Source: a virus (lineage: Duplodnaviria > Heunggongvirae > Uroviricota > Caudoviricetes). From it: a DNA stretch of 10,471 nucleotides. Location: IMG/VR virus record IMGVR_UViG_3300025122_006001. One strand, given 5' to 3'. Both the position numbers and the translations under genes were made by a program. The notes under the pieces are model-generated. The model saw nothing but the letters and a program-made list of their open reading frames with translations, made no database searches and was not told the origin of the DNA. This document shows positions 1 through 10,471 of the stretch, in pieces. The stretch's first letter is position 1; every line of letters begins with the position of its first letter.

Positions 1-465
1 GGCATTGCCACAAGTGGGGCACTTAGAGTGTTCAAACCGGCTCCACCACTGATCTGTCTGTTTACTAGCTGTTCTAATTTTACGACCAGCAGTTACAGTA
101 GGCTGCTTTGACTGCGATAAAGCTTTTGCATAATCAATTGTTTCGCCTTTATCTTCAAATATAGACTTGTTATCTCCAAGAAGCATTACTCGAATAACTT
201 CTGAACCTTTATTAGTAATTTCAATTTTATCTCCAACGCTTTTTACGAGTTCTGATTTCTCCATTGCTACCACGTCTTCGCTTGAAACAGTAGCAGGTCT
301 GCGATATATCCTATCTTCAACTTTGTTGTCTTCATCTTTCCAAATATTAAATAAGTTTTTCGCAGCTTTTGGATGAACTAAATCTTTACTATGTAACCGA
401 TCAGTTATCTCTGGGACAAGAATAACTAAGTAATCGAAAACAGATTGTCCAAGTGTATTATGCAT
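1..465 (-). CDS. Hypothetical phage protein, 3'-truncated (155+ aa, MHNTLGQSVFDYLV...HSKCPTCGNA); possible winged-helix-like segment and a CxxC at the window edge
   Basis: Manual translation: ATG at 465-463 and 155 codons with no stop to position 1. It is missing from the ORF track because its stop lies outside the window. It overlaps the upstream gene stop by 8 nt (ATGCATAA). Confidence 0.85.
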   Translation of the reverse strand, partial: MHNTLGQSVFDYLVILVPEITDRLHSKDLVHPKAAKNLFNIWKDEDNKVEDRIYRRPATVSSEDVVAMEKSELVKSVGDKIEITNKGSEVIRVMLLGDNKSIFEDKGETIDYAKALSQSKQPTVTAGRKIRTASKQTDQWWSRFEHSKCPTCGNA

Positions 466-1888
466 ATTCTTTCTTTCTATTCTTATTTAGCCATTCCTCT
501 GTTTGTTCAGCCGATACTTTTTTTTCACAATCAAAATGAAGATGACGATGACAATTAGTACAAAGAACAATACATTTTTCTAACTCTCGCTGTATTACCT
601 TAAACCCAAAACTACAGCGAATAAGATCAGAAATTTTCTGCGTTTTTGAACTAGAATCTATATGATGAAAATCTAAACAAAACCATCGTTTTTCACCACA
701 ACAGGCACAAGAAGCGTTTTTCTTATAATCATCTAGCCAATCGCGCTTCTGTTTTTTCGCCAATCTTTTTGTTTTATTTATATGCTCTTTATTATTGATA
801 AAACGATCGGAACGACGTTTTAATTCTTTTTGCATTTTTTTCTTTTCACTTTTAGCAACCGCCTCTGTGCTCTTTATATGCTTATCATAATATTCCTGTT
901 GTACTGATTTTCGTTTGTATATTTTCTCTGCCTCAATACATTCAGGTGCGTTGCAGCATGCGTGAGAATGATATGTGTGTTTATAGCACCTTGTGCCACA
1001 ATGCTTACATGTCATTTGTTTATTATATTTCCTTTTAGAATCTACTCGCCTCTTAATAAGTCTTTCTGTTTCAAAACACTCATCAGAACAATATTTAACA
1101 TGATTAGGCGAAAAAATAAATTTCTTTTTACAGTGCACACATTCTGTGTAATCATCATCTAGATATTTTATATCATTCGACAAAAAATCTAATTTCTCTA
1201 CAGAGTTTAACCACTGAAAAGTCTGTTCAGGCGTTAAATCTCCTTTAAACAAAAAATGCAGATGTCTATGACAATTGGCACAAAGTAAAATACATTTATC
1301 TGCTTCTGCCTTTATGACAGCCAAGGGACAACCATTGTATACAATTCCTGCCATATTCAATTTCTTTTGAGAAATATCTAAATGATGAAAGTCTAAACAA
1401 AACCATCTGTTTTCACCACACTTCTCGCAAGACTTAGACTCTTTATAATTTGTTATCCATTCTCTTTTTTGTTTCCTTTCTAATCTCTTTTTTTGCTCAA
1501 CGGCTCGCATTTTCGTTGGGTTGTTCTTTCTATGCCGACGACTACTTTCTGCCTCTTTCTTTTTATCACGCTTAGATTTTCTAACGTGCGTATTATAATG
1601 TTTTCTCTGAGCTAGTTTCTTTCTATGGAGTTTTTCTTTGTCAATGCAGGATTCTTTGTTACAACAGCCTCCTGAATGATATGTCTTCCTATTCATAAAA
1701 AGACCACAATGTTTACACGTCATTTTTATGGCATAATTGGACTTGCAGAGCTTTTGCTCATATTCTTTTCTCGCCATCTTAAAACATTGACGACTACAAT
1801 AAAATCTATTTTCAGAGGAAGAAATGAATTTCTTTTCACAATACCGACAAGTTTTGTATTCCTCCGGTAAATATTCTGTTTTTGGCAT
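458..1888 (-). CDS. Tandem-duplicated HNH endonuclease (476 aa): two units, each with CxxC..YCSxxC, CKHC..CC..C, a basic helix and an HNH-type nuclease (CxxCGExRWFCLDFHH...KCIxLCxNCHRHLH)
   Basis: The motifs are visible twice in the translation (about aa 6-230 and 242-472). An AAGGAG Shine-Dalgarno site lies 6 nt before the ATG at 1888. Confidence 0.85.
   Translation of the reverse strand: MPKTEYLPEEYKTCRYCEKKFISSSENRFYCSRQCFKMARKEYEQKLCKSNYAIKMTCKHCGLFMNRKTYHSGGCCNKESCIDKEKLHRKKLAQRKHYNTHVRKSKRDKKKEAESSRRHRKNNPTKMRAVEQKKRLERKQKREWITNYKESKSCEKCGENRWFCLDFHHLDISQKKLNMAGIVYNGCPLAVIKAEADKCILLCANCHRHLHFLFKGDLTPEQTFQWLNSVEKLDFLSNDIKYLDDDYTECVHCKKKFIFSPNHVKYCSDECFETERLIKRRVDSKRKYNKQMTCKHCGTRCYKHTYHSHACCNAPECIEAEKIYKRKSVQQEYYDKHIKSTEAVAKSEKKKMQKELKRRSDRFINNKEHINKTKRLAKKQKRDWLDDYKKNASCACCGEKRWFCLDFHHIDSSSKTQKISDLIRCSFGFKVIQRELEKCIVLCTNCHRHLHFDCEKKVSAEQTEEWLNKNRKKEYA
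662..1420. repeat. Nucleotide trace of the internal duplication in the HNH gene: 662-700 versus 1382-1420
   Basis: 36 of 39 nt are identical at an offset of exactly 720 nt (CGExRWFCLDFHH coding segment). Confidence 0.9.
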
Positions 1889-1910
1889 GAAAATCTCCTT
1901 TCATGCATAA

Positions 1911-1937
1911 TTTCGACAAATTATCAACAAATCCTTT
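1911..1937 (-). promoter_or_regulatory. Candidate phage promoter motif AAAGGA-N17-GAAA (copy upstream of the HNH gene)
   Basis: Minus strand reads AAAGGA tttgttgataatttgtc GAAA. It has the same spacing and a shared TTTGT as the copy at 6731-6757. Both copies lie in the only two real intergenic gaps. Only two copies were seen, so this is inference. Confidence 0.35.
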
Positions 1938-1942
1938 AACTT

Positions 1943-1996
1943 TTATCTGAATTTTTTGTCTTCAAAAGATAGGACAAGCGCTAGAAATTCAGATAA
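1943..1996 (-). terminator. Long stem-loop directly after the stop of the 260-aa gene (possible terminator or processing site)
   Basis: Perfect 12-bp inverted repeat TTATCTGAATTT (1943-1954) / AAATTCAGATAA (1985-1996), with an inner TTGTC/GACAA stem (1956-1960/1973-1977). The stem is AT-rich and has no clear U-tract, so it is not a canonical intrinsic terminator. Confidence 0.4.
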
Positions 1997-2779
1997 TCAG
2001 TCTCTAGTTAGAGCATATCTTTCATAATATGGTTCTTCGTCGCGCCTATTATACCAGCTATAGGGCTCATTACGAAGCTCTCTCGCCATAAAACCCTCGC
2101 CAACACGACCATCTCCATTATAATTTTCGAGTCCCATTCTATATCTTGTTTGTTTACGAATATCTTTCATTCTTCCTCTAAGATTTTCATCTTCATCTCT
2201 CCACGGCCAAACTCTTTCCAACATTGGCAAGTCTAGGTTTGACCACGGACCTGCAACAGACTTAGCCGTTTTATATTCGAATGACTCTGCATATGCTTCA
2301 CCTCCTGACGCTAATCGCAACAAGTCAATAAGATAATATAGCTTATTGATTCTACGATGAACACAATCAATCGCTATCTTAAAATTTGGAAACAACTTAA
2401 CTTGAACAGAAGTAAATTTGGATACATCTCTCGATAAACAATTAAAAACTGCCCTTTTTAAAGACGTATTGTCTAAATCCTCAAAAGCATCAACAAGCTT
2501 AGCGATATCTTTTAGCGAATAAACGAATAAATCTACAGAACGTGAGTCTGCGACTGTATTACCGGGCACGCTAGTATCATATAACAAATCAACAGATTCT
2601 TTCCACAAGAACTTAAACGTATGAATATCTTGATCTATATCTTTTTTAAATCCAGCAATAAGATGAGATATCGTCTTTGCCTTGACTGTGCCGTTCTCTC
2701 GATGTTGACAAGAGCCATCATCAGATAGCCTAATATCATTAACAGCGAGTTCTTTTTTTATCAAATCCCAGTTATTCAT
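1997..2779 (-). CDS. Hypothetical phage protein (260 aa) with a Trp/Tyr/Arg-rich C-terminal ~90 aa
   Basis: Long ORF on the coding strand whose ATG overlaps the upstream small ORF stop (ATGA). No family recognised. Confidence 0.85.
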   Translation of the reverse strand: MNNWDLIKKELAVNDIRLSDDGSCQHRENGTVKAKTISHLIAGFKKDIDQDIHTFKFLWKESVDLLYDTSVPGNTVADSRSVDLFVYSLKDIAKLVDAFEDLDNTSLKRAVFNCLSRDVSKFTSVQVKLFPNFKIAIDCVHRRINKLYYLIDLLRLASGGEAYAESFEYKTAKSVAGPWSNLDLPMLERVWPWRDEDENLRGRMKDIRKQTRYRMGLENYNGDGRVGEGFMARELRNEPYSWYNRRDEEPYYERYALTRD

Positions 2780-2910
2780 TTTTTCGCGGGTTCATGTTTT
2801 CCAACTAACACGTCAACATATTTTTTAGGATGAACGGTTTTCCAGTATCTTTTTAGCTTCTTCTTATCAAACTTCTTACCACGAGCTTTTTCTGAAGTCA
2901 ACACTCGCAT
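2776..2910 (-). CDS. Small basic protein (44 aa, MRVLTSEKARGKKFDKKKLKRYWKTVHPKKYVDVLVGKHEPAKK)
   Basis: It fills the 2780-2909 gap exactly, with a TGATG overlap upstream and an ATGA overlap downstream. It is below the ORF-track length cutoff. Confidence 0.8.
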   Translation of the reverse strand: MRVLTSEKARGKKFDKKKLKRYWKTVHPKKYVDVLVGKHEPAKK

Positions 2911-3752
2911 CAGTTATCGAGTTCCAATCTCACTTGTTCATTAGATCTTTCTCTTAGCTTGGGATGACTGCCGATCCTTTCAGCTGTTTGCTCATGATCT
3001 ACGAAGTCAATATCTTCTGGGGTTTGTCCCAGATCAATAAAAGCGGGATCTGCTTCATCTGCTTTATCCACTTCATCTGCGGACTTCTCTGGTCTCACTG
3101 TTCCCACTGGCTGTAATGCTTTTGGCGGTCGCCCTCTCTTCTTGCCCGTAGATTTTTTAGTAGTCACTTTCTTCCTTTTTCTGCGCATTTTCGGCTTTTT
3201 AGCATCACCATCATCATCTTCTGCAACTTTTATTTGCTTAACATGCTGTGTTTGGGATTTTGACAACTCATCTTTAGAGAGAACTTTTTCACGTTGTGCG
3301 TCCCAAGCTCGCATAGTTGTTGTAGGTTCTTCTGGGCGACATGGTTCTTTTGATGTTTCTTCGTTTTTTTCTTTCTCTGTTTTCATTTTGCCCACAATTA
3401 AATCTTTAGAAGACTCTACTTCTAATAAGCCCATATCTATAGCTTTTTGGAACTCTGGTTCATCAATTTGATCTTGTCGTAAAAATTTCATATCATCTTT
3501 TTCAAAAACAACATTATAAACTACTAAGCGATTTTTTCCTATATTTCGAACTGGAAATTCGGTAGGATGGGTATCTAGTTTCGGAGCTCCCTCAACAAAT
3601 GATATCCACTCTTTCTTAACAGCCATTTGGATATCTGACATATACGCATCTGCGTCTTTAAGGGTGATTATGTCATTCGCCTTCATTGGGTGCCCAATAG
3701 TAGGTAGTGTCAGCTCTCCTGAGAACTTAGATGAAACTTTAATTCGCATCAT
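2910..3752 (-). CDS. Hypothetical protein (280 aa): two ~55-aa N-terminal repeats, then a charged low-complexity tail with an AT-hook (KKRGRPPK)
   Basis: AGGAG Shine-Dalgarno at 3756-3760 and a TAATG overlap with the upstream gene. The RGRP core is at aa 206-209. Confidence 0.85.
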   Translation of the reverse strand: MMRIKVSSKFSGELTLPTIGHPMKANDIITLKDADAYMSDIQMAVKKEWISFVEGAPKLDTHPTEFPVRNIGKNRLVVYNVVFEKDDMKFLRQDQIDEPEFQKAIDMGLLEVESSKDLIVGKMKTEKEKNEETSKEPCRPEEPTTTMRAWDAQREKVLSKDELSKSQTQHVKQIKVAEDDDGDAKKPKMRRKRKKVTTKKSTGKKRGRPPKALQPVGTVRPEKSADEVDKADEADPAFIDLGQTPEDIDFVDHEQTAERIGSHPKLRERSNEQVRLELDN

Positions 3753-4348
3753 TATCTCCTTTTTCTGTTAACCTCTTCAAAAACATTATCGGTTAATCTA
3801 TCAAACAGTCTTCTATTAGGCGTCCAGCCTTTCTGCATATTATGCGGGCCAACTGGTTCTTGCTCTTTATTAATATTAATATGCCCCAAAGAATCTTCCG
3901 GGTCAAAGAATCTATGATCGCTGGCGTCCTGATGCTGCACACCGTCTGGCGATTTATTCCCAGAAGGGAACTCACCATCAAAAGACATCGTATTCTCCAT
4001 ATCGTCGATATCTTTTTTTACCTGTTCAGCGTATTCTTCCTTGCCAATCTCGCTTATATTTGCTTTAGCACGAGGGTCGAGTGGGCTTCTTACCTCAGTT
4101 CCAAATCCAGTGCCCTCACCAGGCGTTGTTAATTTATGACCTTGCTCATCTCCGGGTTTGCTCTTTCTGCGATAAGGATTGTAAGAGGGACTGAATCGAT
4201 CATAATCAAAAGTATCTGGCGGCCCTGAAAAATTACGCGCCACTACAAACAAATGGTTGCCACATTGGCAACCATCGTCAATATCTCGAAATGCCATTGT
4301 TCGTTTACACTCCTTGCAAACAAACGCTAACTTATCTATGGGTGTCAT
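3752..4348 (-). CDS. Hypothetical protein (198 aa) with an N-terminal Zn-ribbon-like motif (CKEC-x12-CQC) and a Pro/Gly/Asp-rich, probably disordered remainder
   Basis: Translation; the ATG is 2 nt after the upstream stop. Confidence 0.85.
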   Translation of the reverse strand: MTPIDKLAFVCKECKRTMAFRDIDDGCQCGNHLFVVARNFSGPPDTFDYDRFSPSYNPYRRKSKPGDEQGHKLTTPGEGTGFGTEVRSPLDPRAKANISEIGKEEYAEQVKKDIDDMENTMSFDGEFPSGNKSPDGVQHQDASDHRFFDPEDSLGHININKEQEPVGPHNMQKGWTPNRRLFDRLTDNVFEEVNRKRR

Positions 4349-4350
4349 TA

Positions 4351-5241
4351 TTAGACCACTATTAAATCTGGGTATGCTTTCTTAGCCTCTTCAATTGTAG
4401 GGAATAATTCTAATGCTTTGTCATCAACAGATAGCTTGTCTTCCGCATCTTTCTTTAACGACCTCTCCCAAACAGTTAACGCATTTTTTTTATTGTTTAA
4501 AACAAGGAAATGCTGCTTCACTTTTCCATCAATAAAAGCAAGCAACCTTGCTTTAGCAGAATTAATATCATTCATCTGCTGTTGCTCTTGCTCTGTCATT
4601 TCTCTACTTTCAAGTGCTGCTTTGCCAAAAAGCGTAAACAACATTGCATCTGCATCTTTTAGTGATGCTGTAACCATTTCATAAATTTTGTCTTCTTTCG
4701 CCATTCTTTTTTCATCTACTTGAATATCTTTATTAAGAGGCATTGTTTTATGTAGACCCTTAAATCTATCTGGATGGTTTTGCAATTGGCTTTTATGGTT
4801 ATTAGATGGAACCTTTGTCTTCATTGCTTCCGAGATATCTAGCCCAACATATTTATCCCAAAACACAGTATCTTTATCTTTAGCACCTTCTGCTGAACGA
4901 ACTACCTCATAGTGCTTCTGGTCATGAGCTTCTGCGACCTGCTGAACAGTTAAAAGACGAGAATCAGATATCTTATCTGAGCGACGAAGATTATATACTT
5001 GTTTATTATTATCAAACTTAGATTCTATAGTTCCTGGGTGGTCGTCGCCTGTGCGAGATTTGCTTAATTGTTGTTCCCAAGGAACATTTGTATCTTTCGC
5101 CCTATGGTCGCCTTTTTGAAGAAGCCAGTCATAATTACCAGGGTTCTTAGGCGTAAATTTATGAGGCTTAGTCTTTTCAACAAGCATCTGATCATAGTGC
5201 TTAGGGTCGTCTTTTTTAGCCATTTTGCTTTGATTAGACAT
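4351..5241 (-). CDS. Hypothetical phage protein (296 aa), possibly virion or head associated
   Basis: Long ORF whose ATG directly follows the iscB stop. Its apparent original Shine-Dalgarno site lies on the far side of the IscB cassette (GGAGAG at 6713-6718). Function is inferred only from position after terL. Confidence 0.85.
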   Translation of the reverse strand: MSNQSKMAKKDDPKHYDQMLVEKTKPHKFTPKNPGNYDWLLQKGDHRAKDTNVPWEQQLSKSRTGDDHPGTIESKFDNNKQVYNLRRSDKISDSRLLTVQQVAEAHDQKHYEVVRSAEGAKDKDTVFWDKYVGLDISEAMKTKVPSNNHKSQLQNHPDRFKGLHKTMPLNKDIQVDEKRMAKEDKIYEMVTASLKDADAMLFTLFGKAALESREMTEQEQQQMNDINSAKARLLAFIDGKVKQHFLVLNNKKNALTVWERSLKKDAEDKLSVDDKALELFPTIEEAKKAYPDLIVV

Positions 5242-6459
5242 TTAACTTTTCCATAATAAAGTCTGAAAACTCTCCAATAACTTCAAGCGTTTGCAATTTA
5301 CATTTTTACCAATAACGTCTCCATCTAATTTTCTAACATCAAAATATCCAGAATTTCTTCTACCAAAAATAAAACATTCAATTTTATTTAATAAAATTTT
5401 GTCAAATCTTTGAAAATCCTCTATAAATCTATATGCTGTATTTCGTATGTGACTTCGAGCACCTTTAAACAGTTTTCTGTTCTGTTTTCTCACTTGCTTA
5501 ATGATATATAGATGACCTCTTATTTGATCTATCCCCCCAGCAGTCACAAAAGCATCATTAATATGTGATTTAGATAAGTTCAATCTTATTCTGTTAGATT
5601 TTGTAATATAACCATAAGTAATATTAATAGGTAATCCTAACTTCTTTGCCTCTGCTACTATTCTCCACCTAATAATTGACATGAAAGTTTCTGGTTTAAA
5701 CTGTCTTGATCTTTTTGCTTTTAACTTAATTTCACCATTGTGATGTTTATCATGACAAGTCAAGCAGAGAGTAAGCAGATTTTCAGGATTATCTGTTCCT
5801 CCCTGGCTTCTAGGAATTATATGATGCACTTGAAGAATCTTATCTTTAGATTTCCCTTTACAATACTGACAAACATGATTATCTCTATGCAAAATATATT
5901 CCCTTATATTATAGAATCCTAGTTGTTCACCTTCTTGGTATTCTTTGCCATTGATATCTGGATCTTTAATTTTCTGTATATCAAAATTAGCTACTTCTAT
6001 ATTAATTTCTGTGATAGGAAGCAGTTTTGTGATTTTCTGAATTAATTTAATATGAGAATCTAATTTGTGTTGAACAGAAGGGGCTAACCAACCTTTTTCT
6101 ATTTTTCTGTTTAGAAACCTAGATTTACGATACCAAGTTTTTCTTGATCTTCTCGTTCTTCTATACATCTTTTTTTCTGAATTAAGATTAGGCATGTCAG
6201 TTCTCAACTGCGCTTCAGCAGAAAATACTTCTTTTTTCTCTGTGACAGCAGATAAGCCAACGCTTTTATAACCTGTATCTACTCCTAAAATAATTCTTTG
6301 TTTTGTCTCGCCAGTTGCATTTTTCAGTTGAATCGTGAACGGTGTTCTCTTTACAACACGAGCATCTCCTTTCTTTAACAAGACTCTTGCTTTACGAGAA
6401 GTAGTGGGCATAAGAGGTTCGCCTCTCATGTTGAGCACATAAATAGCAGGTACTCGCAA
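5242..6459 (-). CDS. iscB: IscB RNA-guided endonuclease (RRXRR/PLMP family), ~405 aa from TTG 6459; the frame is open to ATG 6636 (464 aa)
   Basis: PLMP motif (GEPLMPT), RuvC-I (ILGVDTGYKSVG), Arg-rich bridge helix (RRTRRSRKTWYRKSRFLNR), RuvC-II (INIEVANFD), HNH (CQYC..VHHIIPRSQGGTDNPENLLTLCLTCHDKHH) and RuvC-III (SHINDA). GGAG lies 8 nt before TTG 6459. Confidence 0.93.
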   Translation of the reverse strand: MRVPAIYVLNMRGEPLMPTTSRKARVLLKKGDARVVKRTPFTIQLKNATGETKQRIILGVDTGYKSVGLSAVTEKKEVFSAEAQLRTDMPNLNSEKKMYRRTRRSRKTWYRKSRFLNRKIEKGWLAPSVQHKLDSHIKLIQKITKLLPITEINIEVANFDIQKIKDPDINGKEYQEGEQLGFYNIREYILHRDNHVCQYCKGKSKDKILQVHHIIPRSQGGTDNPENLLTLCLTCHDKHHNGEIKLKAKRSRQFKPETFMSIIRWRIVAEAKKLGLPINITYGYITKSNRIRLNLSKSHINDAFVTAGGIDQIRGHLYIIKQVRKQNRKLFKGARSHIRNTAYRFIEDFQRFDKILLNKIECFIFGRRNSGYFDVRKLDGDVIGKNVNCKRLKLLESFQTLLWKS

Positions 6460-6707
6460 GTCCTGCTCTCCCTGTACTCGGGGAGTTAGAGCCTCATCGG
6501 GACTGTTATCAAAGGTTTTGAGATTCTGCAACACCGTCCCTACCTCACAGGACTGTTTAATCACAGAATCACAGTTGCTACGGACTTGAGGAGCATCCGT
6601 AGGTGTGTATGTGTTTCCCTCTGATAACTTCTGCATTATATTAATGCTCCCTAGTCAACCTAGAACTCATTTTATTGAGATCTCAGCATTAGCTGTCGGT
6701 AGTTGAC
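6445..6707 (-). ncRNA. IscB omegaRNA scaffold (approximate 3' end)
   Basis: It lies directly 5' of the PLMP-coding region. Stems seen: GTCAAC/GTTGAC (6707-6702/6659-6654), CAGC-TAAT-GCTG, ACGGA/TCCGT (6600-6580), GTCC/GGAC (6553-6536) and AGCAGG/CCTGCT (6467-6445). Layout matches known IscB loci. Confidence 0.8.
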
Positions 6708-6730
6708 TAAATCTCTCCAATATACCTTTC

Positions 6731-6757
6731 TTTCACAAAAAGCATAGCTTATCCTTT
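6731..6757 (-). promoter_or_regulatory. Candidate phage promoter motif AAAGGA-N17-GAAA (copy between terL and the IscB cassette)
   Basis: Minus strand reads AAAGGA taagctatgctttttgt GAAA, the same geometry as 1911-1937. It overlaps the terL stop codon. Confidence 0.35.
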
Positions 6758-9700
6758 ATCTTATGACAGGGTTTCTCCAAGGCTGGCGGTTAGCTAAAGC
6801 ATCTGCAACCTGTTGTCCTGTGCCGGATCCAATAGGACCTTGCATGCCCTGCCATACTCTTTCATTTGGTTGCGGCACGATACCCATATTTACCATCTTG
6901 CCCTGAGGCAGCATATTAGCATTCATATTGATTGCCGAATAGCAAGCTCCTGCAAGGGCATCGACTAAATCATCTGTCTTTATGCCATCTCCATTTCGCC
7001 TGGCAGAAATTCGATAACCAGTGGGAATGACCTTCTTTTGCAACCCGACCATTTCGTCCATGAGCAACGTTGCCGCAGGGTCATTATTAGGAACAATAAG
7101 TTTTCCAGCATTCACTATCTGCAACAGCTCAGAATAAATCACCATCTTGTGCCTGTTGGTGAAACGAGTCTCTTTATTTGGCAGTCCAGCTTTGCGCAAT
7201 CTAAGCTTACTCTCAATAGAATTCCAGGCATCGTATGTTACCATGCCAATTCTAAATAATCGCTTCAGCTTAATCACGAACTCATCTACTACCGAAGCTA
7301 TAACAGGCTGATTAGTCGTAGGATGCCAGTATTTCAGCAAATCCACCATAATCATATAATCTGCCTTACGTGTTTCTTCATTCAAAAATATTTGTTTGTG
7401 AACTAACGCTAAAGCATAATTATGACTTGTCGCGGCAGGATCGAGATGCAAGAAGTATATTTGTCCAGGTTCTCCAGTTTTTCTAAAACGAATATTGCCC
7501 TTGAAACATGACTTAGTGTGTTCTTCTGAAAAGAAGTTTTCACCAGCGATACCACTAAACTCTGCCCCAAATTCCATCTCAAACTCTTCTTCACTCATCG
7601 AGCTAAATTCTCGTTTTAGAGACTGACGGGTTCTTGCTGGCATAACATCCCAGCTTGGAAGTCTACAAGCGAGTCTTGTGTCATATAAATCAGCTTGCGA
7701 AAAAAGCTCCCAGAACTTGCCTTCTTTACCACGAGGCGATGATATACTGATAGTTTTTCCGTCATAAATAATGTCATTTTCCGGCTCTCCCTTGTCATCA
7801 ACTTTTTGTTTGCCATCACTATCTAACACGGGCACTTTGCGATAGTAAGTTGCAATGGTGGGAGTTAGGGATGCATAAATGCGATCTCCAGAAGAAGCGC
7901 CTCCTGTCGTTCTATATGAAGCAACTTCGTCAAGTATCAGCACAAAAACACCCTTACCTAGCAACGTAGCAGAGTTGCTATGCCCCACCTCAATAACAAT
8001 AGAGCCTTTTGTTTTCAATCCCATGTCCCTTGCCGCAAAATTTCTATTTTCTTCTTTATCTTTTGGCGTTAAAAGATAAACTTTACCCTCCTCTAAACCA
8101 TCTTTAATGTATTTGTCTGTAAAATATTTACTAGACAGCAGCTTACTTCTTATTTCTGCATATGCGACACCAGATTGTGCTTGCGAGTTAGCAACAGTCA
8201 ATATATTAATAGGGTTTGCATCGGCAATATTGTAATAGCCAAACGGATCGCCTCCAGGGCACTCCAAAAGCTTTAATGCCTCATAAAGTGCTATAATACT
8301 GACACAAAAATCTTTGCCCGAATTATGAGCTATAAACCCGTTGCTAACAAAGCTTTGCAACGATTTTTGACTACTCACTGAAAGATCAAACGTGCGTTTT
8401 TTACCAATTTTATTGATAGATCTAATTTTAAAAAACGAAAATGGACATTGATCCCTGTGCGTTGTTTTAATACTACTGTCAATACTTAATAACCTATTCA
8501 ACGCCATATGCACAGCCCCATCCTTGCCAATGAATCCAATATTTTTAAAAAATCTTTCTACATATAGTTTCCTTGAAAAATATAATCCGTAACTTACTGT
8601 GTGATATTGCCTTTTTATGTTTTTTTCATCTACAATATACGAATTAACCTTTTTAGTCCTTAAATTTGCTATAATACCAAACTTTAATAAAAGCTGTTGA
8701 ATCAAAATAGCCTGCTGTTTATTTGAACTATAAAACTCTATAGTGCAAACATTACGAGTCCCGACATGGCCATCACAGCTGAATAAAGCCCTAAGATATG
8801 CCGCTATAACATTTTTCGGACACTTAAACATCTCCAACGGCACAGATTTATAGTGACACGTTTTACCAGCCAAGTCCCATTTAGTTAACAGTTGCATCAA
8901 ATCGTTTTTCTTTCGCCTAGAACGATTTCTACCTGCTTTCTCGGAATAAAAAGATTCATTGACATATCTTTTTGAAGTGATCTTGTATTGGCAATGTGCT
9001 GATCGTGCACCAGTCCACGGATCCTTAAACATCTTTAAATTGTCACTAACTGCATCTAATCGAGAAGTCATATCTTTTAAGATGACATCATTGTCGCATG
9101 TAAAAAAAGTACATGTCTGAGAACAATTTCCATCTCCTGTCATATAGCCCAACAAAGATGCTTCATCAATAGAAATTTTCTGCGAATTTCCAAAGAATGG
9201 CACTTCTTCACAGATTGCAATCTTGTCTTTTTCTAAATCTAAGTCTTTTAACTGGATCCATCCACGTTGAGTCATAAACGGATGATTCTTAGTAGCCTCA
9301 ATAGTAAAGCCGCTCATAGCTTCTAAACAGAAGACTTCTCGTTCTCCCTGATAAATAATCTCTGCATTCTTTATTATTTGCATCTTGTTAAATTGTTCAT
9401 CATATGTCCATGAATCTATATTATGTTGCCCACTATCCCAGAGCTCCCCAAATGTATGCATGGCGCCATCTTTCGGATCAATGAGCATCATGTCCTCAGA
9501 TAAACATCTACGACCCCAGACAAGAACTAACTCTCTAAAAATAGCTTGACTAAAATACTTACTTCGCACGTTGCCGCGAACATCGTCTGTGAGCCCAAGA
9601 TCTTCACAAAGCTGCAATTCTGCTTCGGTAAGCTTGATGTGTTCATTCCCTCTAGATCCACGATAAAAAACCTTAAGGATTAGCGCTTGAGCGGGTGTTA

Positions 9701-9869
9701 GATTAACGGGAGTGCGTTGATAGGGGAGCCCTAAATAGTCTTCGCTGTTACAAAATTCTATGATATCTGGAATTTTTCTTGATGCAGTAGGCTCAAGAGA
9801 CACCTTCATATCCGTAATAATATCAGAAACGGATGTTCTAGTGCGAAATGGTTTGCGCCCTTTTGGCAT
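6756..9869 (-). CDS. terL: Terminase large subunit precursor containing an intein (1037 aa; ~642 aa after splicing)
   Basis: After intein removal the Walker A reads WGRR|SGKD. Also present: Walker B VLILDEVA, coupling motif ISISSPRG, and RNase H-like nuclease acidic motifs LHLDPA, TYDAWNS and DDLVDA. Confidence 0.92.
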   Translation of the reverse strand: MPKGRKPFRTRTSVSDIITDMKVSLEPTASRKIPDIIEFCNSEDYLGLPYQRTPVNLTPAQALILKVFYRGSRGNEHIKLTEAELQLCEDLGLTDDVRGNVRSKYFSQAIFRELVLVWGRRCLSEDMMLIDPKDGAMHTFGELWDSGQHNIDSWTYDEQFNKMQIIKNAEIIYQGEREVFCLEAMSGFTIEATKNHPFMTQRGWIQLKDLDLEKDKIAICEEVPFFGNSQKISIDEASLLGYMTGDGNCSQTCTFFTCDNDVILKDMTSRLDAVSDNLKMFKDPWTGARSAHCQYKITSKRYVNESFYSEKAGRNRSRRKKNDLMQLLTKWDLAGKTCHYKSVPLEMFKCPKNVIAAYLRALFSCDGHVGTRNVCTIEFYSSNKQQAILIQQLLLKFGIIANLRTKKVNSYIVDEKNIKRQYHTVSYGLYFSRKLYVERFFKNIGFIGKDGAVHMALNRLLSIDSSIKTTHRDQCPFSFFKIRSINKIGKKRTFDLSVSSQKSLQSFVSNGFIAHNSGKDFCVSIIALYEALKLLECPGGDPFGYYNIADANPINILTVANSQAQSGVAYAEIRSKLLSSKYFTDKYIKDGLEEGKVYLLTPKDKEENRNFAARDMGLKTKGSIVIEVGHSNSATLLGKGVFVLILDEVASYRTTGGASSGDRIYASLTPTIATYYRKVPVLDSDGKQKVDDKGEPENDIIYDGKTISISSPRGKEGKFWELFSQADLYDTRLACRLPSWDVMPARTRQSLKREFSSMSEEEFEMEFGAEFSGIAGENFFSEEHTKSCFKGNIRFRKTGEPGQIYFLHLDPAATSHNYALALVHKQIFLNEETRKADYMIMVDLLKYWHPTTNQPVIASVVDEFVIKLKRLFRIGMVTYDAWNSIESKLRLRKAGLPNKETRFTNRHKMVIYSELLQIVNAGKLIVPNNDPAATLLMDEMVGLQKKVIPTGYRISARRNGDGIKTDDLVDALAGACYSAINMNANMLPQGKMVNMGIVPQPNERVWQGMQGPIGSGTGQQVADALANRQPWRNPVIR
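8322..9506 (-). mobile_element. Intein with LAGLIDADG homing endonuclease (395 aa) inserted in the TerL Walker A
   Basis: N-terminal Cys (CLSEDM, TGT at 9506), block B TKNH, endonuclease blocks LLGYMTGDG and YLRALFSCDG, LLLKFGI, block F TFDLSV, C-terminal HN (ends 8322) and +1 Ser. Confidence 0.95.
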
Positions 9870-10237
9870 TAAATTATATTCTCTAAATCTATATTAAATC
9901 CTACCGTTGCAGAAATATCTGCAAATTCCTGAGATACTTTAATCCCACTATCTTTTAAAAATGTATTCACAGAATTGAATTGCTGTGCTACGTGGGACTG
10001 CAATGCTGTGACAAACGACTTCATTTCTGCATGCGGATTAAAATATCTATCTACAACAATAAAATAAGCAAGCTCAATGCTATTGCGCAATACGATCTTG
10101 TTAATTTCATCTGTGTCTATCTCAGAGTCTGACAAATGCCCTTGCATCGCTTTTAAGAGCCGAAATGCTTTCTCTGAGTCTGCCCTTGCTCCTCCTAAGT
10201 GGTCAGCAATTACTTTATACTCTTCTGGCTTAATCAT
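9869..10237 (-). CDS. Hypothetical protein (122 aa, MIKPEEYK...) coupled to terL; positional small-terminase candidate only
   Basis: TAATG overlap with terL. The start is revised from 10255 to 10237 because 10238-10255 is TnpB element right-end sequence. Confidence 0.8.
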   Translation of the reverse strand: MIKPEEYKVIADHLGGARADSEKAFRLLKAMQGHLSDSEIDTDEINKIVLRNSIELAYFIVVDRYFNPHAEMKSFVTALQSHVAQQFNSVNTFLKDSGIKVSQEFADISATVGFNIDLENII

Positions 10238-10345
10238 GTCAATGACCCCTATCATAAAGGATGGGGCTTGTAACTGAATCGTGAGAAACGTTACTATAAG
10301 CCGATTGACATACGGCTCGTTTTTCAGCGGCTTGCCGCTGAAAAA
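10238..10345 (-). ncRNA. TnpB right-end omega/reRNA scaffold (at least this part), overlapping the tnpB 3' end
   Basis: Stems seen: 11-bp TTTTTCAGCGG-CAAG-CCGCTGAAAAA (10345-10320), AGCCG/CGGCT (10317-10299), GTAAC/GTTAC (10294-10270) and the right-end hairpin. The loop ATGTCAAT is complementary to the terminal ATTGACAT. Confidence 0.7.
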
Positions 10346-10469
10346 GCGATCGAAGAGCTATATTACAAGCTCCAATACGATCTGCATTATCTTGATATCT
10401 ACAAGATCTGCACCGGAATTTCAAGCCATTCCGGTTGGCTTTTTCACAGTGACCACAGACAGGACAAGA
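10239..10469 (-). CDS. tnpB: TnpB RNA-guided nuclease, C-terminal fragment (Zn ribbon + RuvC-III), 5'-truncated
   Basis: The frame is open to the window edge and reads SCPVCGHCEKANRNGLKFRCRSCRYQDNADRIGACNIA, giving two CxxC pairs and an ADxxGAxNIA motif. The track start at 10424 is an artefact of truncation. Confidence 0.88.
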   Translation of the reverse strand, partial: SCPVCGHCEKANRNGLKFRCRSCRYQDNADRIGACNIALRSLFQRQAAEKRAVCQSAYSNVSHDSVTSPILYDRGH

Positions 10470-10471
10470 CT

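Follow-up and report, generated by a model that had tools for sequence, protein, structure and literature searches.

How can several selfish nuclease genes crowd around the large terminase gene (terL) of a phage, with their stop codons on or beside the start codons of its genes, and leave no gene broken? This question is raised by a stretch of 10,471 nt from the IMG/VR virus record IMGVR_UViG_3300025122_006001 (the window, by which we mean the whole stretch analysed), part of a 14.5-kb contig from a short-read marine metagenome whose terminus lies inside a tnpB gene. According to the list of open reading frames (ORFs), the minus strand carries every gene of the window, and in the order of transcription these are the end of TnpB, a 122-aa gene, the TerL precursor, a HEARO RNA with its IscB gene (IscB-1), genes of 296, 198, 280 and 260 aa, an HNH gene and the start of a 161-aa gene. 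An earlier note on this DNA had counted four nuclease classes around terL (TnpB, an intein, IscB and a double HNH) over roughly 40% of the window, and had seen in them one repeated strategy of "start-codon parasitism". Domain and profile matches recover all four in these places, and about 4315 of the 10,471 nt (41%) are selfish DNA; five nuclease genes lie within the 14.5 kb of the source contig. The claim that no gene is broken also holds for the genes downstream of the free-standing nucleases, which are all full length by comparison with homologues in relatives and are not pseudogenes. Two relatives in IMG/VR, L001 and L002, share about 75% and 60% protein identity with the window, and the gene order 122-aa, TerL, 296, 198, 280, 260, (HNH), 161 is common to both and to about 50 metagenome contigs. 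We propose that the window probably represents the block of core genes next to the terminase in a marine tailed phage that has not been cultured, and that several independent selfish nuclease elements have invaded it, each of which persists where nothing breaks. The identities of the elements, their boundaries, the intactness of their neighbours and their independent distribution among relatives are established at the level of sequence comparison.

Judged by insertion boundary, IscB alone is informative in the window; at the sites of HNH and TnpB there is in essence a single place where an insertion disrupts nothing. The features of the IscB site are:

5242..6707, minus strand: whole IscB-1 element, 1466 bp, delimited by filled versus empty alleles (L001, L112)
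6485..6707, minus strand: IscB omegaRNA scaffold (Rfam HEARO, RF02033); cmscan 112.6 bits against a gathering threshold of 83, E 3e-23, full model
5242..6459, minus strand: IscB-1 gene, 405 aa from TTG 6459, with RRXRR, HNH and guided_IscB matches; stop TAA at 5244-5242
6708..6755, minus strand: spacer after terL, from the sequence and the empty alleles L001 and L112
4351..5241, minus strand: 296-aa conserved gene after terL, with full-length homologues; its ATG (5241-5239) is the predicted target-adjacent motif (TAM; ATGTCT)

The IscB-1 protein matches Pfam RRXRR (209 bits) and HNH, and the NCBIfam equivalog guided_IscB with 368 bits against a cut-off of 175. Its LGVDTG, IEVANF, HHIIPRSQGG...N and HINDAF stretches align with the catalytic motifs of solved IscB structures, and both RuvC and HNH are intact. 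The iscB frame stays open for 59 codons further 5', through the omegaRNA, to ATG 6636, and gene callers report 464 aa for IscB-1 and 471 aa for a second copy described below. By homology and by the HEARO model, the gene more likely begins near TTG 6459, giving 405 aa, so that the 464-aa ORF previously taken for the gene probably reads through the omegaRNA; the observation that its stop abuts a start codon stands, as the TAA (5244-5242) directly precedes the ATG (5241-5239) of the 296-aa gene. Another relative has an IscB, 45% identical, in a different position again, downstream of the 161-aa gene (L103:6151-6609), where it is cut by the contig end.

The empty alleles define the insertion precisely. 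In L001 and L112 the site reads GGAGAAATTTA|ATGTTT (more fully, ...GGAGAAATTTA|ATGTTTAATCAAAGC), and in the window GGAGAGATTTA|GTCAAC...(1466 bp)...GTTAA|ATGTCT (fuller right flank, ATGTCTAATCAAAGC). A contig of the probable source run that joins 5208 to 6887, a candidate IscB-less relative, has short anchors at 85% likeness and was not relied on. IscB-1 is inserted between the Shine-Dalgarno sequence (SD; GGAGAG) and the ATG of the 296-aa gene, with 1 nt of ambiguity and no target duplication, and occupies the last of about 47 positions in the spacer. The last 16 or so nucleotides of the spacer between terL and IscB (6723-6708, ATATTGGAGAGATTTA) are the predicted guide and include the displaced SD, which in the filled allele lies 1.47 kb upstream of the 296-aa gene; there is no strong SD within 15 nt of the ATG, and a weak GGA near it. 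The element has no tnpA. For all three free-standing elements of the window, empty alleles fix the position within 1-2 bases, which upholds the claim that the ends of the elements, beyond those of their ORFs, coincide with start codons.

This position agrees with a rule known for related transposons. For ISC elements that begin with 5'-GT(CA), the target is N|ATGA and is not duplicated on insertion (Kapitonov, Makarova, Koonin 2016, PMC4810608). The TAM of GstIscB, TTCAT, adjoins the left end of the element (ATGAA downstream of iscB), and its omegaRNA, which comes from the right end, depends on transcription that reads through from an upstream gene in the same direction; insertions show a bias for this orientation (Meers et al. 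2023, PMC10055086). Start codons are mentioned in neither paper. We surveyed 80 viral IscB loci, which collapsed to 21 distinct contexts. An ATGA is present within -4 to +28 nt of the IscB stop in 13 of the 21, compared with 20% at random positions (p = 3e-5) and with 19/71 (27%) after other long ORFs (p = 0.004). In 7 of the 13, this near-stop ATGA is the start of an ORF of 150 codons or more, against 14% of all ATGA sites (p = 1e-3), and in three contexts (the window, L008 and L009) the left flank holds an SD at the correct spacing from the downstream ATG. These 21 contexts, together with filled and empty pairs, show that contact of IscB with start codons recurs in other phages, above the expectation from ATGA frequency.

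The second copy (IscB-2, L189:12251-13741) lies on the same source contig, about 6.5 kb past window position 1. Its protein is 80% identical to IscB-1, it has its own HEARO (121.8 bits), and it is located directly 5' of the ATGA start (ATGATA) of a conserved 528-aa gene, at a site that every relative mapped across it has empty, among them L001, L084, L002 and about a dozen more. Its end hairpin, GGAGG...CCTCC, is intact, whereas IscB-1 has lost about 50 nt at the TAM-side end compared with IscB-2, which brings its stop beside the ATG. Two further pairs come from cultured phages' genomes of Ralstonia and Staphylococcus. The empty site of Ralstonia phage Gervaise reads TGAgtgccact|ATGAAACAC, with an ATGAA start codon, and the filled site of Ralstonia phage Claudette …|GTCAACC…CTG|ATGAGCAAACAC, with the stop/start contact TGATGA; in Ralstonia phage Adzire the same element is found at an ATGAG that is not a start. 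In the Staphylococcus Silviavirus pair, vB_SauM_VL10 (VL10, L184:1180-2800) is filled and Romulus (L186:620-760) empty, as are about 45 sequenced relatives. The VL10 insertion of about 1.56 kb is at a site where two genes overlap by 11 nt, and supplies a new ATG and recoded first 10 or so codons to a RusA-like resolvase (MLNLTNSKKK versus MTNSKKK), the new start overlapping the iscB stop as ATGCTTAA. Stop and start also meet in L014, as TAAcATG, and in L010, where they overlap in ATGA.

In a model that would account for these observations, IscB-1 is a TnpA-less element of the IS200/IS605 type (ISC/OMEGA) from a clade that targets N|ATGA (the TAM TTCAT as it reads from the other strand, on the iscB-sense strand). 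Its omegaRNA guide would have to be transcribed from a co-oriented upstream gene, and where the genes of an operon are densely packed, most ATG(A) sites that are transcribed and can be filled without harm would be start codons. The N|ATGA target, co-oriented read-through and the loss of gene-breaking insertions would thus together bring IscB to its place behind the SD and before the ATG of the 296-aa gene. As the guide of IscB-1 spells the SD region of the uninterrupted allele, RNA-guided homing against element-free relatives is possible: IscB-1 and its omegaRNA would recognize the empty allele (guide ATATTGGAGAGATTTA, then ATG(T/A)), and recombination with a carrier genome after cleavage would copy the element in. 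The closest relatives differ from the guides at 2-3 of 16 positions. With the hairpin and about 50 nt lost, IscB-1 would no longer depend on TnpA. The 296-aa gene would be translated mainly by re-initiation at TAAATG after the nuclease stop; translational coupling of this kind is plausible, judging from the displaced or weak SD sequences. It is from sequence that we infer nuclease activity, homing and the re-initiation of downstream genes.

The contact made by TnpB involves the following features:

10239..10471, minus strand: C-terminal part of TnpB (zinc-finger/TNB domain, end of RuvC), matching PF07282 and a PHROG transposase; stop TGA at 10241-10239
10238..10400, minus strand: structured tnpB 3' region, presumed omegaRNA scaffold and transposon right end; fold z-score -3.86, 4-5 hairpins
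9869..10237, minus strand: 122-aa conserved gene upstream of terL, whose homologues in L001, L002 and L112 start at the same residue

The junction reads TGA (10241-10239), c, ATG at 10237, and this ATG, 1 nt past the TnpB stop, is the true start of the 122-aa gene, where its homologues begin. TnpB does end at an ATG, as had been claimed, with the correction that only its last 76 or so residues are in the window (frame 10239-10469; Pfam 26.0 bits against a cut-off of 26.3). The Logan contig L190 lengthens it by 31 residues to 107 aa, which match the TNB domain (PF07282) with 73.6 bits and positions 317-389 of the 389 of NCBIfam guided_TnpB (NF040570); both assemblies stop about 300 nt into the gene. 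The structured 3' region, which no Rfam family covers, terminates ...GGGGTCATTGAC at 10238 and is followed by the predicted guide ATGATTAAGCCAGAAG (10237-10222). The filled allele of the window reads TTGAC|ATGATTAAG (longer reading, ...GGGGTCATTGAC|ATGATTAAGCCAGAAGAG), and the site is empty in L001 as TTTAC|ATGATAAAA (longer reading, ...TTTTTAC|ATGATAAAACCAGAAGAG) and in L112 as TTCAC|GTGATAAAG, preceded by TT (...TTTTCAC). In reverse complement, the right end of the TnpB element aligns with the 5' ends of IscB omegaRNAs (GTCAA-N-ACCCC-hairpin-GCTTGTAA) over the first 37 nt or so (GTCAATGACCCC-hairpin-GCTTGTAA). Because the boundaries of these IscB ends are fixed by empty sites, we tentatively place the TnpB right end at GAC|ATG, and a boundary after GACAT, which would split the ATG, is disfavoured by this homology. 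A weak plus-strand HEARO match at 10238-10366 (E 0.47), at first sight a chance hit, covers this right end in reverse complement and is accounted for by the homology of the ends. By this alignment, the TnpB and IscB elements share one transposon-end family. The TnpB relatives found with the 76-aa fragment (40-56% identity over about 40 residues) are too distant to define ends or to test the omegaRNA for covariation, and an exact-pattern scan of IMG/VR for the TnpB/start-codon junction gave no match. The contact looks like a single event, in which the right end of a TnpB element of the IscB end family would happen to meet the ATG of the gene before terL, on a flank that is not constrained by the TAM.

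The third free-standing element is the HNH cassette:

458..1888, minus strand: tandem-duplicated HNH endonuclease gene, 476 aa, with PHROG HNH families in two stretches
1889..1996, minus strand: cassette leader upstream of the HNH ORF, with the SD AAAGGAG and an inverted repeat of 13-15 bp (TTATCTGAATTT...AAAAAATTCAGATAA)
1..465, minus strand: start of the 161-aa conserved gene, known from homologues, downstream of the HNH cassette

The two halves of the protein, which has no Pfam match, are 41% identical over 234 aa and derive from the in-frame duplication of a unit of about 238 aa; each has Cys-rich modules, LDFHH and CxNCHRHLH. The cassette of about 1.53 kb comprises the leader with its inverted repeat and the ORF, whose stop overlaps the next ATG as ATGCATAA. 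In L002 the junction without HNH is stop-T-ATG (TAA-T-ATG) and the leader is absent too, and L001 has a single-copy HNH with the same junction geometry as the window. In a close relative, L084 (3494-3607), the leader hairpin and the last 40 or so nucleotides of the ORF are left and the gene is gone; this remnant is a deletion scar, in which the homing gene was lost and the purine-rich stretch before the next ATG was kept. HNH homologues occupy the same junction in 14 related contigs, all as single copies, and are 33-50% identical to the halves of the window protein, compared with up to 77% for the flanking genes. Codons 2-6 of the 161-aa gene differ between HNH carriers (MHNTLGQS) and the HNH-free L002 (MIYKNSQS). 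A contig of the probable source run that skips 799 nt inside the HNH gene was not relied on, having short anchors at 85% likeness. The doubled HNH gene is best described as a putative free-standing homing endonuclease gene at a junction that is occupied in many relatives.

The fourth nuclease lies within TerL itself:

6756..9869, minus strand: large terminase precursor, 1037 aa (phrog_17415, E 7e-17), with an intein in Walker A
8322..9506, minus strand: LAGLIDADG intein, 395 aa, C122-N516 followed by S517, with matches to Intein_splicing, LAGLIDADG_3 and PDB inteins

Large terminases of actinobacteriophages and of other phages are known to carry inteins in the P-loop of their ATPase. Besides phrog_17415 (E 7e-17), TerL has a weak match to phrog_9, and its identity also rests on the Walker A motif and on synteny; the exteins have no sequence match in Pfam, NCBIfam or the PDB, and are 78% identical to the intein-less TerL of L001. 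The intein sits exactly between VWGRR and SGKD of Walker A, and L001 and L002 have an exact gap between VWGRR and (S/A)(G/S)KD. Its matches are to Pfam Intein_splicing (37.8 bits against 35.8), to LAGLIDADG_3 (E 1.7e-11) and to DnaB and VMA (mini-)inteins of the PDB, and it has the splicing motifs C122, block B TKNH and ...IAHN|S517. The translation shows two LAGLIDADG motifs with acidic residues, LLGYMTGDGN and LRALFSCDGHV. The intein would be removed at the protein level by splicing, which, as the sequence reads, restores GRRSGKD. Five distant relatives, with exteins about 55% identical, have homologous inteins (61-65% identity) in this position; as the intein is better conserved than the exteins in these and missing from the closest relatives, it is probably laterally mobile. 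The TerL family of these relatives has at least three intein sites, namely Walker A, C-extein residue ~367 and residue ~453 (KTDD|xDALAGA), and one of the two further sites is confirmed. Inteins at these other sites are found at L002:8461-9711, within the nuclease domain of TerL, and at L112:8424-9485, which is the third site, as well as in L113, L118, L119 and L124, and some contigs have two TerL inteins together.

The idea of one shared strategy is not borne out by these data, as contact with an ATG has a different cause for each element: the N|ATGA target for IscB, a 1-nt spacer for HNH and a single event for TnpB. The earlier note had further suggested that the nucleases act together as an allele-exclusion set against related co-infecting phages. 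Their distribution over about 45 related contigs shows each element to be independent of the others, as the same sites hold IscB in 0, TnpB in 0, the P-loop intein in 5 and HNH in 14, in no fixed combination; consequently nothing supports a cooperating set, an idea that draws on the general literature on homing and marker exclusion. Tightness of stop and ATG is in itself weak evidence, as native junctions are equally tight: those of the window are at -1, +2 and -1 nt, and roughly a third of the gene junctions of L001 and L002 are at +2 nt or less; filled alleles set against empty ones are the stronger evidence. Of the two ways in which the note had said that its reading could fail, the first largely applies to IscB, whose adjacency to ATG is mostly explained by TAM composition and gene density, and the second does not, since no downstream gene is a pseudogene. 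In conclusion, the term "start-codon parasitism" suits the geometry of IscB, which recurs, and known target-site rules combined with selection explain the pattern better than a shared strategy does.

Several observations weigh against this conclusion. The flank of IscB-1 is ATGT and not ATGA (the empty alleles have ATGTTT), so that the fourth base differs from the rule, and no hairpin is found in the last 100 nt on its TAM side (DNA fold z +0.23). Having lost this hairpin, IscB-1 is not an ordinary substrate of TnpA and is probably TnpA-immobile. The left end and the TAM of the TnpB element lie beyond the contig end, with the upstream gene whose intactness would have to be seen there, and in the empty alleles L001 and L112 the stop of that upstream gene overlaps (ATGA/GTGA) the start codon beside the TnpB insertion. 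That the neighbouring genes are essential is inferred solely from their conserved synteny, and they have no assigned function. Finally, all three free-standing nuclease ORFs end within 1 nt of the next ATG or overlap it, against a background of about 35% (nominal p ~0.04), which leaves room for some shared constraint beyond chance.

A bolder generalization would be the following. ISC/IS605 elements for which (T)TCAT amounts to an ATGA(A) target would be start-codon seekers that settle in transcribed genes between SD and ATG and use the 5' untranslated region of the host as guide, and whose ends in phages fuse stop to start (TAAATG, TGATGA, ATGNNTAA), so that expression of a core gene would need an intact nuclease ORF, with TnpB and HNH behaving alike; we hold this to be doubtful. 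Also unlikely is the idea of adaptive docking, according to which a nuclease stop placed on a core-gene start is a selected strategy, coupling by termination and re-initiation keeping the insertion neutral and penalizing decay by nonsense or frameshift mutations, which would shield the element from loss. This would fit the 296-aa gene, left with its SD 1.47 kb upstream and a weak GGA near its ATG, the loss of about 50 nt that placed the IscB-1 stop beside that ATG, and the occurrence of stop/start contact in independent lineages (TAAATG in the window, TGATGA in Claudette, ATGCTTAA in VL10, and L014 and L010), the VL10 insertion even bringing a new start and a recoded N-terminus. However, in many related IscB elements the stop is set apart from the ATG by 9-28 nt or by an SD that the element brings, half or so of the IscB contexts are without any downstream gene start, the Ralstonia element is also found at an ATGAG that is not a start, and tight or overlapping junctions are normal for native genes in these phages.

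Very unlikely is a third possibility, that some of the nucleases are domesticated phage functions, the HNH protein as a packaging accessory of the terminase, and IscB or TnpB as weapons against competing phages or host DNA. In other phages HNH proteins reportedly assist the terminase, as Kala et al. are said to have described in 2014, and the presence of an HNH homologue at the same junction in 14 related contigs might be read in this way. Homing nucleases are able to exclude competitors (review, PMC13565253), which would suit the role of weapons. Nevertheless, the HNH gene is five genes away from terL, it is absent (L002) or deleted (L084) in close relatives whose modules are otherwise intact, and its divergence (33-50% identity for up to 77% in the flanks) fits turnover rather than a conserved function. 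IscB and TnpB are, at these sites, unique to this phage among about 45 relatives, and their predicted guides are plain flanking sequence, as for any transposon copy; the sequence suggests that these guides fit no target except the empty allele of the phage itself. That the arrangement is an assembly chimera joining fragments of different phages or bacterial insertion sequences, as might be feared from a 14.5-kb short-read metagenome contig and from a sample in which two IscB copies (80% protein identity) and related strains coexist, can hardly be true, since identical contigs from other studies' marine and vent metagenomes bridge the three free-standing junctions (X2 record 14 for TnpB/122-aa gene, X2 record 10 for IscB/296-aa gene and X4 record 15, a hydrothermal-vent sample, for HNH/next gene), an independent Logan assembly gives TnpB, the 122-aa gene and TerL again, and the insertions are base-exact relative to the empty alleles.

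Invasion by independent elements, the reading that we retain, leaves the core genes to be described. Those not listed above are:

1997..4348, minus strand: three syntenic conserved genes of 198, 280 and 260 aa, defined by their ORFs and by synteny across relatives, without Pfam or PHROG match

For the conserved neighbour genes, no function emerged from Pfam, PHROGs or the ESM Atlas, and the window and two related IscB loci had no match by megablast against GenBank phages. The 122-aa gene is conserved in most mapped related contigs, and its stop overlaps the terL ATG (TAATG). In one relative, a homologue of its product is the N-terminal part of a protein of 1345 aa that also has beta-helix and glycosyl-hydrolase-like domains (L117:2600-6637). 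This hints that the 122-aa protein may serve as an adaptor or anchor for a protein of the tail-fibre or depolymerase type.

Each element is of a known kind, the target rule dates from 2016, and for the present known rules and selection account for most of the pattern. Particular to this locus are the density of nucleases, the presence of TnpB and two IscB of one transposon-end family, the end-degenerate IscB-1 with its stop touching a host ATG, and the in-frame doubling of the HNH gene. The window thereby offers a compact natural case in which several kinds of selfish nuclease load an essential-looking packaging region of a phage with its genes unbroken. As base-exact pairs of filled and empty sites give guide and TAM for two IscB copies, the model of RNA-guided homing is directly testable. 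A supported corollary of the N|ATGA rule, stated in neither PMC4810608 nor PMC10055086, is that in co-oriented, gene-dense DNA these elements land at start codons and part the ribosome-binding site from the ATG. If translation of the downstream gene did depend on the nuclease ORF, selfish genes would have a further, new means of withstanding decay; were the elements start-codon seekers, this dependence would work as an addiction-like lock, and the homing cycle would pass more slowly through its decay phase.

Compared with known systems, IscB-1 resembles the ISC transposons that insert at N|ATGA (ISC1-1_MA of Microcystis, ISC2-1_HM, ISC2-1_MS; PMC4810608) and GstIscB/ISGst5 (PMC10055086), as a non-autonomous element with a HEARO omegaRNA and IscB, a 5' end GTCAAC, no duplication, a position directly 5' of ATG(A), the same orientation as the upstream gene and a guide equal to the flanking sequence. 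It differs from them by its location in a phage core operon, by the ATGT flank, by the missing TAM-side hairpin and about 50 nt, with the stop touching the host ATG, and by having split off the SD of the host gene, which is now its guide. TnpB resembles the IS605B-type TnpB-only partners of ISC transposons (Kapitonov 2016) and TnpB of the ISDra2/IS608 type in its C-terminal TNB domain, its structured 3' region and TTGAC-type right end, and a guide that would equal the flank; this right end is homologous to IscB right ends, as described for ISC/IS605B partner pairs. In contrast with these elements, the last 100 or so residues alone are known here, the left end, the TAM and the catalytic RuvC residues being out of view, and the right end adjoins a start codon, which the TAM rule does not demand.

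The HNH gene recalls the free-standing homing genes of T-even phages (seg, mob; Edgell, Gibb, Belfort 2010, PMC2988022), in that it lies between conserved genes, is polymorphic for presence and absence, overlaps start or stop codons of its neighbours, and is flanked in carrier alleles by altered codons, as co-conversion would give. Unlike these, it has a whole unit of about 238 aa doubled in frame, whereas the 14 relatives are single-copy, and it overlaps the downstream start, whereas in T4 mobE/nrdA it is the stop of the upstream gene that is overlapped. The intein, lastly, is like known P-loop inteins of phage large terminases (see also bioRxiv 10.1101/2025.01.02.630785) in being a LAGLIDADG intein in Walker A, with Cys1, a C-terminal HN and Ser+1, and in its patchy occurrence and better conservation than the host gene; the difference is that this TerL family uses at least three sites among the relatives of the window.

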